This document shows, one piece after another, positions 2,372 through 50,720 of a stretch of 50,720 nt of DNA. Origin of the DNA: a virus (taxonomy: Duplodnaviria > Caudoviricetes); IMG/VR virus record IMGVR_UViG_3300023179_000002, positions 1 to 50,720 of that record; one strand, given 5' to 3'. The translations under genes were made by a program, and so were the position numbers. The notes under the pieces were generated by a model. That model searched no databases and was not told where the DNA came from. It worked only from the letters and a program-made list of their open reading frames with translations. Each line of letters opens with the position of its first letter. Position 1 is the stretch's first letter.

Positions 2372-3040
2372 ATGGAACAAACAATTATCAAAAACCGGTA
2401 CACTGGCGAAGTGATGTTAGAAGGCCAGCCACTAGAGTCGATTCTTGGAATGCACAAGCCCTGGCTGTTAGGCAAAGAAGGCGGCAGACGCGCATGTTTG
2501 CGCGGTGCAAACCTCATCGGTGCAAACCTCAGCGGTGCAAGCCTCGGCAGTGCAAACCTCAGCCATGCAAACCTCAGCGGTGCCGACCTGCGCGGTGCCG
2601 ACCTCAGCCATGCAAACCTCAGCGAGGCCGACCTCAGCCATGCAAACCTCAGCGAGGCCGACCTCAGCCATGCAAACCTCAGCGATGCAAGCCTCATCGG
2701 TGCAAACCTCAGCGGTGCCGACCTGCGCGGTGCCGACCTCAGCGAGGCCGACTTGTGCGGTGCGAACATGAACGGTATTAGCTTGGAGGATACCATAGGA
2801 AACAAATTACAGGTAAAAAGCCTGCAACTTGAAAGATACTCAATAGCCTACACAGCTTTAGATTTGCAGATTGGTTGTAAGGTCTACGATATCTCTCAAT
2901 GGTGGGCATTTGATGATATCACAATAGAACAAATGGACAAAGGCGCGCTGGATTGGTGGAAAAAATGGAAACCAATTTTGCAACAAATTATTGAGGCATC
3001 TCCAGCGACACCGACAGGGCGGGGAAAGGCAGGTAAGTGA
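2372..3040 (+). CDS. Pentapeptide-repeat protein
   Basis: About 19 A(N/D/S)Lxx repeats (about 2490-2790) followed by an LQIGC...W C-terminal domain. Confidence 0.9.
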   Translation: MEQTIIKNRYTGEVMLEGQPLESILGMHKPWLLGKEGGRRACLRGANLIGANLSGASLGSANLSHANLSGADLRGADLSHANLSEADLSHANLSEADLSHANLSDASLIGANLSGADLRGADLSEADLCGANMNGISLEDTIGNKLQVKSLQLERYSIAYTALDLQIGCKVYDISQWWAFDDITIEQMDKGALDWWKKWKPILQQIIEASPATPTGRGKAGK

Positions 3041-4470: not shown

Positions 4471-4980
4471 ATGAAACTTTATTTTATTGACCATGCCACT
4501 GAGCAGGGCCGACGCCGACAATGGACAACGACCCTGCGCCGATTGAAACAAATCTATGCAGAGCTGGCCGACGACCAGAAAGCCGATGCCGTGGCCGAGG
4601 CCTACGAGTGCCCCCGCACGACGAAAAAAATGCAGGAGCAGTGGGCCGATTTTCTTGGTCGGTTACAGGCCGCGCCGAAGGAGATGCCCGCCGACGCCGA
4701 TCTTGCCGTGGTTCCTCAGGCGCCGGTGCCGCGCCTCCCCTATCGCGCCCTCGTGTCGGCACGTTACGATATGCGATGGACCATGGACCAATATCAATGG
4801 CCCGTGGAGTTGGTGATCACCGATAAGCAGACCGGCGCCGTTTATTCTTTCGGCAAGGATCTCGATGAAGCCCGGCGCGTGTACCAGCGATTGCAAAAAA
4901 CTTTTCGTGGCAGCCACCGAGTTTTCGAGGCCGAAGTGGCAAAAGTTTTGGAAGAGAGGAACCATGTTAACCAAAAATAG
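4471..4980 (+). CDS. Hypothetical protein (start trimmed to MKLYFID)
   Basis: AAGGA RBS before ATG 4471, in frame with ORF 4156..4980. Confidence 0.65.
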   Translation: MKLYFIDHATEQGRRRQWTTTLRRLKQIYAELADDQKADAVAEAYECPRTTKKMQEQWADFLGRLQAAPKEMPADADLAVVPQAPVPRLPYRALVSARYDMRWTMDQYQWPVELVITDKQTGAVYSFGKDLDEARRVYQRLQKTFRGSHRVFEAEVAKVLEERNHVNQK

Positions 4981-4981
4981 A

Positions 4982-5010
4982 TTGACACACACCGACCGTT
5001 GCCGTACCAT
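4982..5010 (+). promoter_or_regulatory. Sigma70 promoter upstream of the tRNA-like/CysRS unit
   Basis: TTGACA-N17-TACCAT. Confidence 0.7.
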
Positions 5011-5035
5011 CCAGCCCCAGAAAGGTAGAAAGACC

Positions 5036-5266
5036 ATGGACCATGAATCTCGCGCCGACATGCCCGACTTTAACGCATGGGCTTTCGCTATTTTTCGCCT
5101 GACATTCGGAGAAAAAGAAGACGAGCAGGTGGTGATTGACCGCCTGAAGCTGGCGCTTGCGGCAGCTTATAGCCGAGGCTTCGCGCATGCTGTGGCCGGT
5201 GCCGACCTCCCTAAAAAAGCAAAACCTCGGAAACCCCACAAGCCCAAGCCGCGGGGGAAAAAATGA
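5036..5266 (+). CDS. Hypothetical protein with basic tail
   Basis: AAAGG leader then ATG 5036. Confidence 0.6.
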   Translation: MDHESRADMPDFNAWAFAIFRLTFGEKEDEQVVIDRLKLALAAAYSRGFAHAVAGADLPKKAKPRKPHKPKPRGKK

Positions 5267-5274
5267 CAAGATAT

Positions 5275-5357
5275 GTGCATGTAGCCCAGTTGGTTGAGGC
5301 GAATCCTTGTGCGCACAGGGAGGAAAGATACAGGTTCGAGTCCTGTCATGCACACCA
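5275..5357 (+). tRNA. tRNA-like gene with aberrant anticodon arm (positional anticodon GTG, His-like)
   Basis: Acceptor GTGCATG/CATGCAC + A + CCA; D arm GCC..TGG..GGC; T arm ACAGG-TTCGAGT-CCTGT; anticodon arm non-canonical. Confidence 0.8.
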
Positions 5358-5375
5358 CAACAAAGGAGAGAACCA

Positions 5376-5591
5376 ATGACCGCAACACAATTCTTAGATT
5401 ACATTCACAAGGCGGGAAGTGTTCCCGAAAAGCTTGAAGCTGTGGCTGAATACCTGAATGATTACCCAAATACACCCGTATTTGACCTGAAGTGCATGCT
5501 CCGGGCTGCAGCGTACGCTTCTCGTAGAGGTATTAGAAAATACTACCCTAGCGCAGAGCCGTCACCCCAGTACGATGACGATGGAGCCTAG
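5376..5591 (+). CDS. Hypothetical protein
   Basis: AAGGAG RBS before ATG 5376. Confidence 0.65.
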   Translation: MTATQFLDYIHKAGSVPEKLEAVAEYLNDYPNTPVFDLKCMLRAAAYASRRGIRKYYPSAEPSPQYDDDGA

Positions 5592-5794
5592 GACATGGCG
5601 ATCTGCGATGTTTGCGCAGCACAAAACAAGTGTACGTGGCCCGAAGGGCATGTATGCACGTGGTGGTGCGGCCACTGTGACCATTGCGGTTTGGACGATC
5701 AATCAGTTTGCGACGAGAGCGATTGGCAGTGGCCCAAGGGATCTCGGAACTGGGGACAAAGGGAGTTTTAACCGTGAACACACAGGAGGCTGAA

Positions 5795-6193
5795 ATGCCC
5801 TTGGACATTGCGCCCTTAGACCCGAACGATCCGGCAGTCATCGACGAAGTGATGTTTGATGTTGTTCAGCCATTGACCATTGATCCTGATACATTGAAAG
5901 AGCTCATGGATATGGGTATCGTAGATACAGGTTTCTCGCTTCAGGACAAAGAAGCGTGTCTTAGCTTGCGTTTTTGTGCCCTAGAGTGGGAATACGTCTC
6001 CGCGGAACGTTCCCCGATCCCTGAGCATGGAGGGGCGGTCATCTGGCCTGGTTACAGTGAAATTGTAACCTATGAGATACAGCCCTCTCTTGATACACTG
6101 GAGAGGCTGGGCTTTAAGATAACGGCAAAAGGCCTTGGGTCCATTGAGAATTACAAAGAAACATTAGAGGCGGAGGCTGCGTATGGAATCTAA
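5795..6193 (+). CDS. Acidic hypothetical protein
   Basis: GGAGG RBS before ATG 5795. Confidence 0.65.
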   Translation: MPLDIAPLDPNDPAVIDEVMFDVVQPLTIDPDTLKELMDMGIVDTGFSLQDKEACLSLRFCALEWEYVSAERSPIPEHGGAVIWPGYSEIVTYEIQPSLDTLERLGFKITAKGLGSIENYKETLEAEAAYGI

Positions 6194-7577
6194 AGATATT
6201 TTTCTCTACAACACGCTGACGCGGCAAAAAGAAACATTCAAACCTGTGGATGATAAAAACGTGCGCATGTATGTGTGCGGTCCCACCGTGTATGATCGCG
6301 CCCACCTGGGCAATGCGCGGCCGGTGGTGGTGTTTGATACGCTGTTCAGGTTGCTGCGCCACAAATATGGCCACAACCATGTCACCTATGCCCGCAACAT
6401 TACCGATGTTGATGATAAAATTATGGCCCGCGCCCATGAAACGGGTGAGAGCATTGAAAGCCTGACCACACGCACCACGCAGGCCTATCATGATGATATG
6501 GGTGCGCTGAATGCACTGCCCCCCACCATCGAGCCGCGCGCCACAGGCCACATTGCCGAGATGATTGCGCTGAATGAGGTATTGATTGCAAAAGGTCATG
6601 CTTATGTGGCCGAAGGTCATGTGCTTTTTCATGTGCCCAGCATGAAAAATTATGGCCAGCTTTCACGCCGCAGCCGCGATGAGCTGATTGCCGGCGCGCG
6701 GGTGGATGTGGCACCCTATAAAAAAGATGCGGCCGATTTTGTGTTGTGGAAACCCAGCGCGCCCGATCAACCAGGCTGGGAAAGTCCGTGGGGTCGTGGC
6801 CGGCCTGGCTGGCACATTGAATGTTCGGCCATGGCGCGCAAACATTTGGGCACGACGTTTGATATTCATGGCGGCGGGCTCGATCTTATTTTTCCCCATC
6901 ATGAAAATGAAATTGCACAAAGCTGCTGCGCGCATGATGGCGCGCCACTGGCCCGTGTGTGGATGCATAACGGATTTCTGACCATCAATCATGATAAAAT
7001 GAGTAAATCGCTGGGCAATTTTTTTACGGTGAATGATCTGTTGCAGAAACATCATGGAGAAGTGATACGCCTGGCGCTTTTGTCGGCGCATTATCGCCAA
7101 CCGCTGGATTTTTCTGAAGAAAAGCTGCAAGAATGCAAGGTGACGCTGGAAAAATGGTACAGCGCTCTTGGCAACTGCACAGAGATTGAAAACGAGTATG
7201 CTGATTTAAGCCAGCGCCACCAACTGCAGGTTTTTGGCCCCGCTGAAGAAGCGCTGTGTGATGATTTGAACACGCCACAAGCCATGACAGAATTAAACCA
7301 ACTTGCTGCAAAAATATTTAAGTTGCCTCTTGGCTCTGATGAACGAAAAAAATTGTCTCACACCCTCAGATACTCAGCTCAATTCCTTGGGCTGCTGTAT
7401 TGGACGATTGACAGACCTGTACTTGATGCCCTGCTTCGAGAGTATGCTCAGGCGCGATACAACAAAGATTTTGCCAAGGTTGACCAATTACGCGCTGAGA
7501 TTCAAAAGCTGGGCGTGCAAATTGAGGATGGCCCCAAGGGCACATATTCACTTCGGCCATTTTGGAGATCGTTTTGA
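6183..7577 (+). CDS. cysS: Cysteinyl-tRNA synthetase
   Basis: MYVCGPTVY, HLGN (HIGH), RNITDVDDK, DFVLWK, GRPGWHIECSAM, DIHGGG.DL.FPHHENE, KMSKS, DDLNTP and C-terminal anticodon-binding domain. Confidence 0.97.
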   Translation: MESKDIFLYNTLTRQKETFKPVDDKNVRMYVCGPTVYDRAHLGNARPVVVFDTLFRLLRHKYGHNHVTYARNITDVDDKIMARAHETGESIESLTTRTTQAYHDDMGALNALPPTIEPRATGHIAEMIALNEVLIAKGHAYVAEGHVLFHVPSMKNYGQLSRRSRDELIAGARVDVAPYKKDAADFVLWKPSAPDQPGWESPWGRGRPGWHIECSAMARKHLGTTFDIHGGGLDLIFPHHENEIAQSCCAHDGAPLARVWMHNGFLTINHDKMSKSLGNFFTVNDLLQKHHGEVIRLALLSAHYRQPLDFSEEKLQECKVTLEKWYSALGNCTEIENEYADLSQRHQLQVFGPAEEALCDDLNTPQAMTELNQLAAKIFKLPLGSDERKKLSHTLRYSAQFLGLLYWTIDRPVLDALLREYAQARYNKDFAKVDQLRAEIQKLGVQIEDGPKGTYSLRPFWRSF

Positions 7578-7852
7578 CTGACATCGCCGCCGCAATGCTC
7601 GCCGTGTCGCTGATGACTGGCCTTCCCGTCCCGCCTCCGCCCATCGTGGTTGAGACGCGCGAGGAAATGCCTTGCGCTGGCGAAGCAAAAAGGCCAGTCG
7701 GCTTGTACTGCATGGGCCATGTTTGGTTGCGCGATGACGCAACACAAGCTGTCGCTGTGCATGAGATGGTTCACCATTACCAACATCACTACCACGCCGA
7801 GATGTTGGAATTACATGCGTATGAACTTGAACGGAAATGGAGCAGACAATGA
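7574..7852 (+). CDS. Small zincin-like (HExxH) protein
   Basis: VHEMVHH plus downstream ExxAY; hydrophobic N-terminus; TTG start overlapping the cysS stop. Confidence 0.6.
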   Translation: MTDIAAAMLAVSLMTGLPVPPPPIVVETREEMPCAGEAKRPVGLYCMGHVWLRDDATQAVAVHEMVHHYQHHYHAEMLELHAYELERKWSRQ

Positions 7853-8064
7853 AAATCAAGGAAATAATCTCACAGCACCGTCGCGACTTTACTGCCGTGT
7901 ACGAATGCGAACACTGCGGGCGCACAGAACGTGGTAGTGGCTACGATGATGACAACTTCCACAGAAATGTTATACCTGCGAAAGTTTGCAGGTCATGCGG
8001 CAAAACAGCGGCAGATAACTATAGGCCGATGGCAACGAAATACGCAGCGCATGAGGTAGTGTGA
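7849..8064 (+). CDS. Small zinc-ribbon protein
   Basis: RRDF..YECEHCG ... CRSCG. Confidence 0.75.
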   Translation: MKIKEIISQHRRDFTAVYECEHCGRTERGSGYDDDNFHRNVIPAKVCRSCGKTAADNYRPMATKYAAHEVV

Positions 8065-8420
8065 TGACCGACACACTTGCAAAAATAGCCGAGCTGCAAA
8101 AGCAGATTGATGAGTTGAAAGCGAAGGCTGAGGTAGAGAAAGAGTGGCCGCAAAAAGGAGATACTGTTTATAGTTTGCACTCCGACGGTTATATTAATGT
8201 CATTGTTTGCGGATATGATGTTAAAGTGCTGGTAGAACGAACTGAACGCGGTGAAATATTCTTGACATTGGATGAAGCCAAGAAGCACGACCGCTGGAAA
8301 ATACTAGACAAAAAGCTGCGCGATTTGGGGGCATCTGAGGAGAATTATTTTCCTGTTTTACGGCAGATTATTGAAGCATACCCAGCAACACCAACAGGGC
8401 ATGAAAAGGAAGGTGAGTGA
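8061..8420 (+). CDS. Hypothetical protein
   Basis: 119 aa; C-terminus resembles that of the pentapeptide protein. Confidence 0.7.
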   Translation: MMTDTLAKIAELQKQIDELKAKAEVEKEWPQKGDTVYSLHSDGYINVIVCGYDVKVLVERTERGEIFLTLDEAKKHDRWKILDKKLRDLGASEENYFPVLRQIIEAYPATPTGHEKEGE

Positions 8421-8761
8421 TGACACACGACTACAGGCACACACTCACCCCTTGGGTGTTAGAAGATAGACGTGAGCGCGGCGAAGGATTTTCAATTAAG
8501 TCACCTTCGGTACATTACTCATCTTGCCTTGTTGCTCACTACATTGGCGAAAGTGACGCGAAGTTTATTGTGCGAGCCTGCAACACATATGATGCTTTGG
8601 TTCGGATATATGAAGCTGCGAAAAAAGTAATGGACTTACTCGAAAAGCACGGCTCAGACGCAGTGCCCCATTTAATGGATACCGACGAAAATTGCGGGCA
8701 GAAACTTCGTGAGTTTATTGCGGAATATACAAAGATTATCGAACCAAAAGCAGGTGAGTGA
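8417..8761 (+). CDS. Conserved phage protein
   Basis: TPW...DAKFIVRACN motif. Confidence 0.7.
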   Translation: MMTHDYRHTLTPWVLEDRRERGEGFSIKSPSVHYSSCLVAHYIGESDAKFIVRACNTYDALVRIYEAAKKVMDLLEKHGSDAVPHLMDTDENCGQKLREFIAEYTKIIEPKAGE

Positions 8762-8949
8762 TGACCAAGCAAGAAAAACACCATATTGGTGATGGGGTTT
8801 ATGTTCATCTAAACCAGTTTAACCAGATTGTGCTTGAGAGCAGTTTTGGCTTTGGTGGGGAGGCACAAAACGTCATTTATTTAGAACCTGACGTAATGCT
8901 TGAACTTATTAAGTTTTCATTACAAGCAAAGGCACGAAACAATGACTGA
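8758..8949 (+). CDS. Conserved small phage protein
   Basis: IGDGVYV...IYLEP motif. Confidence 0.7.
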   Translation: MMTKQEKHHIGDGVYVHLNQFNQIVLESSFGFGGEAQNVIYLEPDVMLELIKFSLQAKARNND

Positions 8950-9319
8950 CAAACCCGAACTTAAACCCTGCCCGTTTTGTGGTGGAACTGATTTGGAATT
9001 CGATTCCAATATATGTTGGGAGTGCAATCAGGAGAAACTTGTACAAGCCACTATAGAGTGTAAAAAATGCGACTGTACGATGTACGCTGACTACGATGAC
9101 GCACTAATAAAAAAATGGAACACGCGGCATGATGAAGCAGTTTTAGATGAGATTGAACACAGGTTTTCTTGCGTGCTTGAAAAGGCCACTGGAGGCATGA
9201 TGAGCAAGACGAATTACGATAAGCAAACTATGTACACACAAATAGATGAATTTTTAGACCGAGAACGCCAAGAAGCTTATCAAGAAGGCTACGATTGGGC
9301 AAAAAAGAAGGAAAGATGA
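8942..9319 (+). CDS. Lar-family restriction alleviation-like zinc protein
   Basis: ELKPCPFCGG ... CxxC ... WNTR. Confidence 0.75.
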   Translation: MTDKPELKPCPFCGGTDLEFDSNICWECNQEKLVQATIECKKCDCTMYADYDDALIKKWNTRHDEAVLDEIEHRFSCVLEKATGGMMSKTNYDKQTMYTQIDEFLDRERQEAYQEGYDWAKKKER

Positions 9320-9582
9320 AACACGACCACAGAGATGCGCTGGAAAATGCTGCCACAAATAATATAGAGTTTTATTCCGATGGAACGCCAACTTTTAGAG
9401 GGTTAGATTGAAAGGCTCTCGAACGATGAACGACGACAGACACTCTTGCATAGGCGATTGCACGCCAAAAGAAAGCGCCGAGCAGTACGCGGACCACCAA
9501 GATTGCTGTGTGCGTTTGCTGCAAAAGCTTGGATTTCATGAATTGGCTGAACAAAGAACAAAATGCAGGAAGGGAGGGACCG

Positions 9583-48170: not shown

Positions 48171-48208
48171 GACTACCCCGCAGGGTCAGTAGCGTTTCAT
48201 AGGCAAAT

Positions 48209-48302
48209 ATTGCTGTCAAGGAGAATCTTGTTGACACGCCAGTGGGGCGTATGGTTGCATGCCCCTGTGACGATCTATGTTTGAACCCCTGAAAAAGTCA
48301 AT
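48209..48302 (+). repeat. 94 bp direct repeat, copy 1 (promoter plus dead 5' end of the gcrA-like gene)
   Basis: 12 mismatches versus 49362-49455 by hand alignment. Confidence 0.9.
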
Positions 48303-49281: not shown

Positions 49282-49361
49282 CAGGTCGTCGCCAAGCAAA
49301 AGGGGTTCTTTAATGACTAAGACGGTCGCCGACCTGCTGACGTTTATATCCGAATACAACC

Positions 49362-49455
49362 ATTGCTGTCAGGGAGAATCTTGTTGACACGCCAGTGGGG
49401 CGTATGGTGTCATGTCGCCATGACAACTTATGTTTGGCCCCCTGAAAAAGTCAAT
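49362..49455 (+). repeat. 94 bp direct repeat, copy 2 (promoter and start of the gcrA-like gene)
   Basis: GAATC-TTGTTGACA...TATGGT, then ATG 49420. Confidence 0.9.
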
Positions 49456-50593: not shown

Positions 50594-50720
50594 AATGTTT
50601 CACGTGAAACATTAACCCTTAACCTTTCTGCAAAATAAATTACCCTTTATGGGTAACTATAGGTGCATGGCTTGGCTTTGTATGACTCCTGATCCATTGG
50701 ATCATGCGCCTTTGTGCAAG
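50594..50720. repeat. Terminal direct repeat, copy 2
   Basis: Identical to 1-127. Confidence 0.95.

Follow-up and report, generated by a model that had tools for sequence, protein, structure and literature searches.

The virus record IMGVR_UViG_3300023179_000002 of IMG/VR (Duplodnaviria; Caudoviricetes) carries at positions 6183 to 7577 the gene cysS, which encodes a genuine, full-length and intact cysteinyl-tRNA synthetase (CysRS). The window analysed is the whole record, 50,720 bases long, assigned to the direct-terminal-repeat class and rated 100% by CheckV. The capture of the gene is recent and, to judge from the sequence comparisons, it was copied from the chromosomal gltX-cysS locus of a lineage of alphaproteobacteria represented here by the genome G422, a lineage that probably includes the host of the phage. 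The phage gene is best explained, with a fair degree of probability, as an ordinary CysRS that would supplement Cys-tRNA charging during infection.

6183..7577, forward strand: cysS, intact class I cysteinyl-tRNA synthetase of 464 amino acids (open reading frame (ORF) call, profile matches, alignment and AlphaFold2 model)

The ORF starts with ATG, ends with TGA and contains neither a frameshift nor an internal stop. Its product was matched over the respective cut-offs by the Pfam families tRNA-synt_1e (7.6e-125), DALR_2 (32.4 bits, cut-off 22) and CysS_C (29.8 bits, cut-off 23), and scored 497.1 bits against the cysS equivalog TIGR00435 of NCBIfam (cut-off 340); the E. coli CysRS 1li5 was aligned to residues 8-455 (6.8e-128). 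Identity with MshC, the mycothiol cysteine ligase paralogous to CysRS, was rejected, since TIGR03447 reached only 289.6 bits against a cut-off of 485.1. In a 50-sequence alignment the motifs HLGN (41-44) and KMSKS (272-276) and the residues C32, C214, H239, E243 and W210 were invariant, and the zinc ligands C32, C214, H239 and E243 correspond to E. coli C28, C209, H234 and E238 in the alignment with 1li5. The sequence-only reading, which had described a full-length enzyme with all class I motifs and zinc ligands intact, is thus upheld on both counts. All columns conserved in at least 90% of 131 other CysRS were retained in the catalytic (102/102) and helical (5/5) parts. The AlphaFold2 model had a mean predicted local distance difference test (pLDDT) value of 83.6 and a predicted template modelling (pTM) score of 0.83, with low confidence confined to residues 337-348 and the final six residues, and its top structural match was 1u0b_B, from the E. 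coli CysRS-tRNA(Cys) complex 1U0B, with full-length coverage (469 columns, template modelling (TM) score 0.78). E. coli residues R427, W432, D436 and R439 are reported to contact the anticodon in the available text of PMC13449415; their phage equivalents are R425, F430, D434 and R437, which were counted as kept. Enzymatic activity of the phage CysRS is predicted from sequence and model only.

The closest copy was found in G422, a 2.1-Mb genome of an uncultured alphaproteobacterium, on the minus strand of contig C44 (C44:11550-12929), with 96% nucleotide identity over bases 1-1383 of the 1395 bases of the phage gene. The best CysRS match in a class-level sample of 401 alphaproteobacterial genomes was 65%, and the order of the genome that gave it was searched as 71 genomes of 1.0-3.2 Mb, in which the other 61 matching genomes showed 68-76% nucleotide identity; the tallies of 401 and 71 include the unpublished genomes G055, G255 and G466, on which no specific claim rests. 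The copy on C44 was the single hit over the cysS cut-off in G422. This contig of 30.5 kb holds genes for a photolyase, uvrC, a dehydrogenase, folB, a SpoU methylase, cysS, gltX and guaB, with an overlap of 4 nucleotides (nt) between gltX and cysS, and none of its other proteins matched the phage. In three of the four relatives examined gltX lies beside or near cysS, with amino-acid identities of 56-61% for gltX and 62-63% for cysS. As the gltX-cysS locus is syntenic and gltX is as diverged as cysS, the gene of G422 is considered a vertically inherited chromosomal gene of a divergent lineage, and this explains the long stem (0.48) of the clade that unites the phage with the G422-type cluster.

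A phylogeny against cellular CysRS had been called for when the gene was first noticed. In the tree obtained (FastTree, with Shimodaira–Hasegawa-like (SH-like) supports only), the phage gene nests with the G422-type cluster in a clade of support 100 among alphaproteobacterial sequences. A viral CysRS clade of 13 rows (support 95), 12 of them from records of 159-608 kb, is separate from the phage. The cluster in the protein database is 92-96% identical to the phage CysRS, with some members labelled Alphaproteobacteria metagenome-assembled genome (MAG); the G422-type protein has 96% amino-acid identity, and the next relatives have 66-68%. The stem of 0.48 and the gap between 96% and 66-68% suggested that all near-identical copies might be phage-borne, which was ruled out by the housekeeping gltX-cysS locus of G422; a transfer from phage to host was ruled out by the same syntenic locus, with its equally diverged neighbour gltX. 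CysRS scans of genome_contigs and metagenome_contigs gave, among the matches listed, full-length ones of up to 58% and only partial ones above this value, the 96% copy not being among them. The codon usage of cysS bears a foreign signature, with a distance of 0.193, versus 0.03-0.08 in the other phage genes for more than 400 amino acids, the capsid gene excepted.

An exact match of 24 nt joins positions 537-560 of the window to G422:C98:5099-5122 (E 4.9e-4), inside a host ORF of 248 amino acids. A link by attP/attB or by CRISPR through this match was rejected, since neither a tRNA gene nor repeats were found there, nor an integrase among the annotated ORFs. The match lies in the AT-rich left end of the window, and a similar TTATC-containing motif occurs at about 587-608.

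The captured segment and its divergent part are delimited as follows.

6192..7565, forward strand: segment homologous to cysS of G422, 98.6% identical outside the patch
7410..7466, forward strand: phage-specific divergent patch, codons 410-428 (phage-host alignment; unchanged in contigs of both run X1 and run X2, described below)

The homology reaches the ATG at 6183 if a phage insertion of 3 nt (TCT, Ser3) is allowed, and stops directly after the Trp codon near the host C-terminus, where the host protein ends in Gly-stop and the phage protein in Arg-Ser-Phe-stop. The insert is the reading frame only, without host flank. A run of 420 nt (6383-6802) is 100% identical, and outside codons 410-428 there are 19 differences in 1317 nt (439 codons), with 1, 1 and 17 at the first, second and third codon positions and four amino-acid changes. 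For these 439 core codons the synonymous (dS) and nonsynonymous (dN) distances between phage and host were 0.0525 and 0.0039, with a ratio (omega) of 0.075; the substitution pattern between the copies, both branches pooled, is purifying. The heptamer GCGGAGG stands upstream of both the phage and the host gene and is possibly the left-hand microhomology of the capture. An ancestor of the phage, whose genome is put at roughly 50.6 kb, would have taken the cysS reading frame alone from the gltX-cysS locus of a G422-lineage alphaproteobacterium, probably via illegitimate recombination at short microhomologies.

The position of the gene in the phage was assessed on contigs and unitigs, not on raw reads or read pairs. 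Of the words sampled from positions 4500-9500, 98-99% are present in the runs X1 and X2, which come from two studies (2018 and 2019); both runs are possible sources of the window DNA, so that at most one of them is independent support. Two unitigs of X2 with 0 mismatches, record 11 (5909-6447) and record 12 (6707-8985), bridge the left and the right junction, respectively. The phage allele of cysS showed 0 differences in the contigs of X1 and X2, and the depth in X1 was 153 and 192 for the cysS unitigs and 181 and 224 for the flanks. Contigs of X3 (another sample of the second study) and X5 (a third study), one of them of 24.4 kb, match only 6192-7565 and continue into unrelated sequence, and the loose ends of the X3 contig are G422-type flanks. 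An assembly chimera, in which host cysS had been falsely joined into the phage contig, might be suspected from the existence of a near-identical host gene and from the unitig graph of X1, which forks exactly at 6192-6221 and 7536-7565; it is, however, exceedingly improbable given the unitigs of X2 that cross each junction, the phage-level depth on cysS in X1, the presence of the allele in two studies and its own differences from the host (Ser3 codon, patch and Arg-Ser-Phe tail). The support at both junctions that the sequence-only reading had asked for was therefore obtained at contig level, and no misassembly of a host gene was found there.

The gene is closely joined to the phage ORFs on its two sides.

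5795..6193, forward strand: upstream phage ORF of 132 amino acids, with AGGAGG 5 nt ahead of its ATG at 5795 (ORF call; no Pfam or PHROG match, searched as 5798-6190)
6170..6176, forward strand: GCGGAGG, putative Shine-Dalgarno sequence 6 nt ahead of the cysS ATG (read from the sequence)
7574..7852, forward strand: downstream phage ORF of 92 amino acids from TTG 7574, without family match (ORF call, Pfam and PHROG search)

The TAA stop of the upstream ORF, which ends at 6193, lies 11 nt within cysS, and its T comes from the phage-specific TCT insertion. For the downstream ORF two TTG starts come into question, 7562 and, with greater likelihood, 7574, the latter forming TTGA with the TGA stop of cysS; the overlap with phage ORFs on both sides, already noticed in the sequence, is confirmed by these positions. 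Across the right junction lies the tetramer GGAG (7564-7567), at a distance of 6 nt from the TTG of the downstream ORF; both it and GCGGAGG may be functional ribosome-binding sites. A contig of X1 (record 6; 4.7 kb, depth about 20) matches 7575-7842 and 8420-8584 at about 80%, with neighbouring segments reordered; its relative of the 7574 ORF, of about 80%, has no adjacent cysS, and the contig is probably from a related phage without cysS at that site. In the window cysS is placed inside a rightward block with the tRNA-like gene, the pentapeptide-repeat protein, the Lar-like protein and small ORFs without family matches. A consensus scan, possibly unsuited to the host, found no promoter or terminator bracketing cysS, and counted 19 promoter-like sites (14.6 +/- 4.0 in shuffles) and 13 terminator-like sites (14.9 +/- 3.9 in shuffles), neither kind being commoner than in the shuffled sequences. 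The block is read as an early region; in it cysS is stop-start coupled to the phage ORFs on either side, and the CysRS would be made early in infection.

The occurrence of CysRS in other viruses was surveyed in two collections. In the phage isolate collection 21 records matched CysRS, all with less than 60% identity; the annotated ones were genomes of 328-469 kb, and the small unannotated records (Listeria, Enterococcus, Staphylococcus and faecal contigs) may be host DNA. In IMG/VR a CysRS was encoded in 97 of 100 candidate stretches, and the tallies by record size are based on the 80 loci kept. Of these, 17 were on records of 150-608 kb, and in about 50 (count from the table) cysS stood at the extreme end of a provirus-sized record, resembling host flank. 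Ten small IMG/VR records with cysS were checked, comprising eight fragments, 3-17% complete, and two proviruses, of which one is 64% complete and the other, with cysS at bases 10-1404, is complete. None of the ten is both small and complete with cysS in its interior. No description of a CysRS in a phage below 100 kb was found in the literature search, which did not cover the supplementary aminoacyl-tRNA synthetase (aaRS) tables of PMC7162821. The available texts of PMC7162821 and PMC6375957 tie phage aaRS genes to huge phages, in agreement with the initial statement that viral aaRS are mostly known from giant viruses and jumbo phages.

The phage CysRS would add to the Cys-tRNA(Cys) charging of the host or replace it, so that phage protein synthesis would not be limited. 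The idea that the gene could back up a host CysRS attacked by a defence system fits, in its backup part only, the near-identity to the gene of the probable host. Several points weigh against an ordinary supplementary enzyme. The cysteine content is 1.30% in the phage proteome versus 1.21% on the host contig, values by which a cysteine-rich phage proteome was also rejected as the reason for the gene. In the C-terminal domain only 5 of the 8 columns conserved in at least 90% of the 131 other CysRS are retained, and within the patch the phage has Tyr421 where 98% of these CysRS have Arg (E. coli R423), kept by the host; the loss of this Arg could weaken or change tRNA binding. The omega of 0.075 covers the host and phage branches jointly and, of the 19 substitutions, most may be of host-lineage origin. 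Apart from cysS, matches between phage and G422 are short or weak, so that cysS is the sole link to this host. The gene is known from a single phage lineage: no close relatives were found in the IMG/VR portal scan or in the primase scan, the downstream-ORF scan gave one 30% hit, and megablast of positions 10000-32000 against the phage isolates gave no match.

Part of this evidence would also suit a recent passenger, that is, a gene captured by accident, without benefit to the phage and intact because it is young, a reading that is judged rather unlikely. It agrees with the identity of 98.6% outside the patch and the 420 nt at 100%, with the lack of a related cysS-carrying phage in the IMG/VR and phage isolate searches, with the relative of the downstream ORF on record 6 of X1, which has no adjacent cysS, and with an omega that is not assignable to the phage branch. 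However, the insert is trimmed to the reading frame and has no host flank, it is provided with a well-spaced Shine-Dalgarno sequence and with stop-start coupling on both sides, and its allele is unchanged in runs of studies dated 2018 and 2019. Furthermore, there is no frameshift or stop, the 107 near-invariant catalytic and helical columns are all retained, and the 1.4 kb of the gene make up 2.8% of the genome of a phage that would package its DNA by headful.

The clearest difference between the phage enzyme and that of the host is the patch, which makes up helix 1 of the anticodon-binding domain at the C-terminus. Over its 57 nt there are 31 differences from the host copy (11, 6 and 14 at the three codon positions), and 12 of its 19 residues are different; a donor was not found in the loci compared or in the phage. 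Phage and host share two other losses in conserved C-terminal columns: at 440 Ile stands in place of Leu, and at 456 Ser in place of Trp, a Trp being present six positions further on. Relative to other CysRS, in both the phage and the G422 copy the linker is shorter and the C-terminal domain has diverged to an unusual extent (mean identity 31-35%, versus a control mean of 63.5% and 5th percentile of 50% in 742 control pairs). A chimeric CysRS with a foreign C-terminal half was rejected, since this divergence is common to the host copy and the phage-only part is codons 410-428. Among the proteins of the database cluster, P0123 combines a phage-type N-terminus with a host-type patch and C-terminus, and in P0122 the N-terminus is that of an unrelated CysRS, with the junction at the conserved VRMYVCGPT; these hybrids could be recombinants or assembly chimeras.

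A change of the anticodon-binding helix after the capture (codons 410-428, Arg421Tyr) could have retuned the enzyme to a function differing from that of the host, for example escape from a factor targeting host CysRS or use of a changed or different tRNA. The concentration of the divergence (31/57 nt in the patch, 19/1317 elsewhere), its location in a helix of the domain that binds the tRNA anticodon, the loss of an Arg that the host retains, the absence of differences in the patch in contigs of both runs that hold the phage and the unusual tRNA-like gene 826 nt upstream are in favour of such a change. It is nevertheless improbable, because the four reported anticodon-contact residues are unchanged, the 11/6/14 pattern resembles a swap for a diverged allele and not a point-wise adaptation, the tRNA-like gene has A73 and not U73, the donor of the patch was not found among the loci compared or in the phage, and no role of E. 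coli R423 was found in the portions of the CysRS literature consulted. A bolder form of this proposal, that the phage rewrote the helix after capture and thereby made its CysRS functionally separate, resistant to the disabling of host CysRS or tRNA-Cys or able to accept a tRNA with an 8-nt loop, is quite improbable; if true, a small phage would own a private synthetase and tRNA pair.

5275..5357, forward strand: tRNA-like gene (ARAGORN; Rfam tRNA 42.4 bits, gathering threshold 29)

This gene has a 7-bp acceptor stem, A73, an encoded CCA, a good T arm and a weak D stem, and its anticodon loop of 8 nt (G-U-GCGC-A-C) is without GCA at positions 34-36. ARAGORN could not assign it (Arg or Ala were suggested), and it had no DNA match in G422. 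With G3:C70 it is presumably not Ala-like by the G3:U70 rule. A role as a quadruplet-reading, decoy or nuclease-resistant tRNA is conceivable; phage tRNAs with changes in the anticodon loop are reportedly the subject of one paper. It was the sole tRNA given by ARAGORN and Rfam in the window, and no tRNA-Cys gene was found with them, as had been stated from the sequence alone. The major determinants of tRNA-Cys are U73 and the GCA anticodon according to the accessible part of PMC9976931. Owing to its A73, its 8-nt loop and its weak D stem, the tRNA-like RNA is a poor candidate substrate of CysRS, and the suggestion that the phage enzyme charges it is not favoured, given A73 in place of U73, the missing GCA at 34-36 and an enzyme that keeps the four anticodon contacts.

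Retention for a side activity in place of tRNA charging, namely the synthesis of cysteine persulfide or diadenosine tetraphosphate (Ap4A), was also weighed. The available text of PMC5660078 reports a persulfide synthase activity of CysRS that requires four lysines of the KIIK and KMSK motifs (E. coli K73, K76, K266 and K269), each single change of Lys to Ala in E. coli CysRS having markedly lowered persulfide synthesis. That reported function and the intact KMSK of the phage speak for this activity. On the other hand, of the four lysines the phage enzyme retains K79, K272 and K275 but has Ala82 at the place of E. coli K76, and the host copy and most relatives, including their consensus, likewise have Ala there; phage and host are not distinguished at these sites, and the tRNA-binding domains are retained and fold confidently. 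A side activity is thus a highly improbable reason for retention, and the persulfide proposal in particular loses ground at the K76 equivalent.

The supplementary CysRS proposed here was compared with known systems. The aaRS of huge phages (Al-Shayeb et al. 2020, PMC7162821) are, in the part of that work available, likewise viral enzymes of bacterial origin, related to but distinct from those of the host and presumed to support translation. In contrast, the present genome has 50.7 kb and a single aaRS, which stands outside the viral clade and shares about 98.6% identity with the host gene; the huge-phage CysRS, for their part, are on long branches. A complete CysRS on a mobile element besides the chromosomal copy is also known from plasmid pBT1 of Salmonella Typhimurium D23580; as far as the available text of Canals et al. 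2019 (PMC6785131) goes, the plasmid copy is expressed and required, the chromosomal copy is dispensable, and the plasmid enzyme has a 3-fold lower kcat/KM. There the carrier is a plasmid and the enzyme was assayed; here it is a virus that appears lytic, known from its sequence. The CysRS of G422 and of E. coli (1LI5, 1U0B) agree with that of the phage in family, domain order, motifs, zinc site and anticodon contacts, and the phage differs from G422 in the extra Ser3, four scattered substitutions, the 19-codon patch and an Arg-Ser-Phe tail in place of Gly. As in host-derived auxiliary genes and morons, a single host gene stands between phage genes, in a region with Lar-like and pentapeptide-repeat takeover functions; in possible contrast to morons, an own promoter or terminator was not detected at cysS (the scan consensus may not fit the host), and unlike in host-derived auxiliary genes, cysS encodes an essential translation enzyme and not a metabolic one. 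Phage aaRS, in huge phages, and mobile cysS, on a plasmid, are thus already known, and a small complete phage as carrier is rare.

Among viruses, aaRS genes are usually associated with the giant ones and with huge phages; the present one belongs to a complete genome of 50.7 kb, in which 1.4 kb are a real cost, and its donor locus is traceable nearly base by base. The case is a clean, dated example of a phage taking an essential host translation gene, as the frame only, through overlapping stop and start codons. Additionally, it offers a sequence-based host prediction for an abundant uncultured freshwater phage and an uncultured alphaproteobacterial lineage with small genomes, and a natural pair of host and phage enzymes differing mainly in one helix of 19 residues, in which a dosage booster and a retuned enzyme can be told apart by direct testing.

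PHROG matches in the carrier genome include primase, DNA polymerase, helicase, tailspike, DNA-ejection protein, major head protein, portal and large terminase, as well as amidase, spanin, antiterminator, methyltransferase and regulators. The portal is P22-like; Pseudomonas phage PAE2 (49%) comes closest among the isolates, with Acetobacter phage phiAX1 (37%) as one of several others. The sequence-only reading had spoken of a 50 kb podophage; the complete phage genome of 50.7 kb stands, and the podophage assignment is plausible from the P22-like portal, the tailspike and the ejection protein, the phage being known here from its genes. No integrase was found among the annotated ORFs of the window, and the carrier thus appears lytic. 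Bases 1-127 are identical to 50594-50720, an end repeat that would reflect circular closure by the assembler; headful packaging is suggested by the P22-like portal and the circular assembly.

Two further genes of the left part have recognizable products.

2372-3040, forward strand: pentapeptide-repeat protein (Pfam 7.1e-37)
8900-9319, in the rightward block: Lar-like restriction-alleviation (anti-restriction) protein (family search)

The pentapeptide-repeat gene contains 16 in-register copies with a spacing of 15 nt (2461-2804), and no other gene of the genome is as atypical in its codon usage (0.355). An ORF of 58 codons without family match (5595-5771, forward strand), with 11 Cys by count, lies between cysS and the tRNA-like gene. 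The first 1000 positions of the window, an AT-rich end region, have a GC content of 0.367 (0.49 overall); they include a TA run near 480-497, and the promoter-like sites that match best in the left arm are found there. A direct repeat of 99 nt (48204-48302 and 49357-49455) is 86% identical, and each copy contains TTGACA, starts about 70 nt upstream of a gene, for a DNA methyltransferase and a D5-like regulator, respectively, and enters the gene start; the two copies are possibly duplicated regulatory regions.

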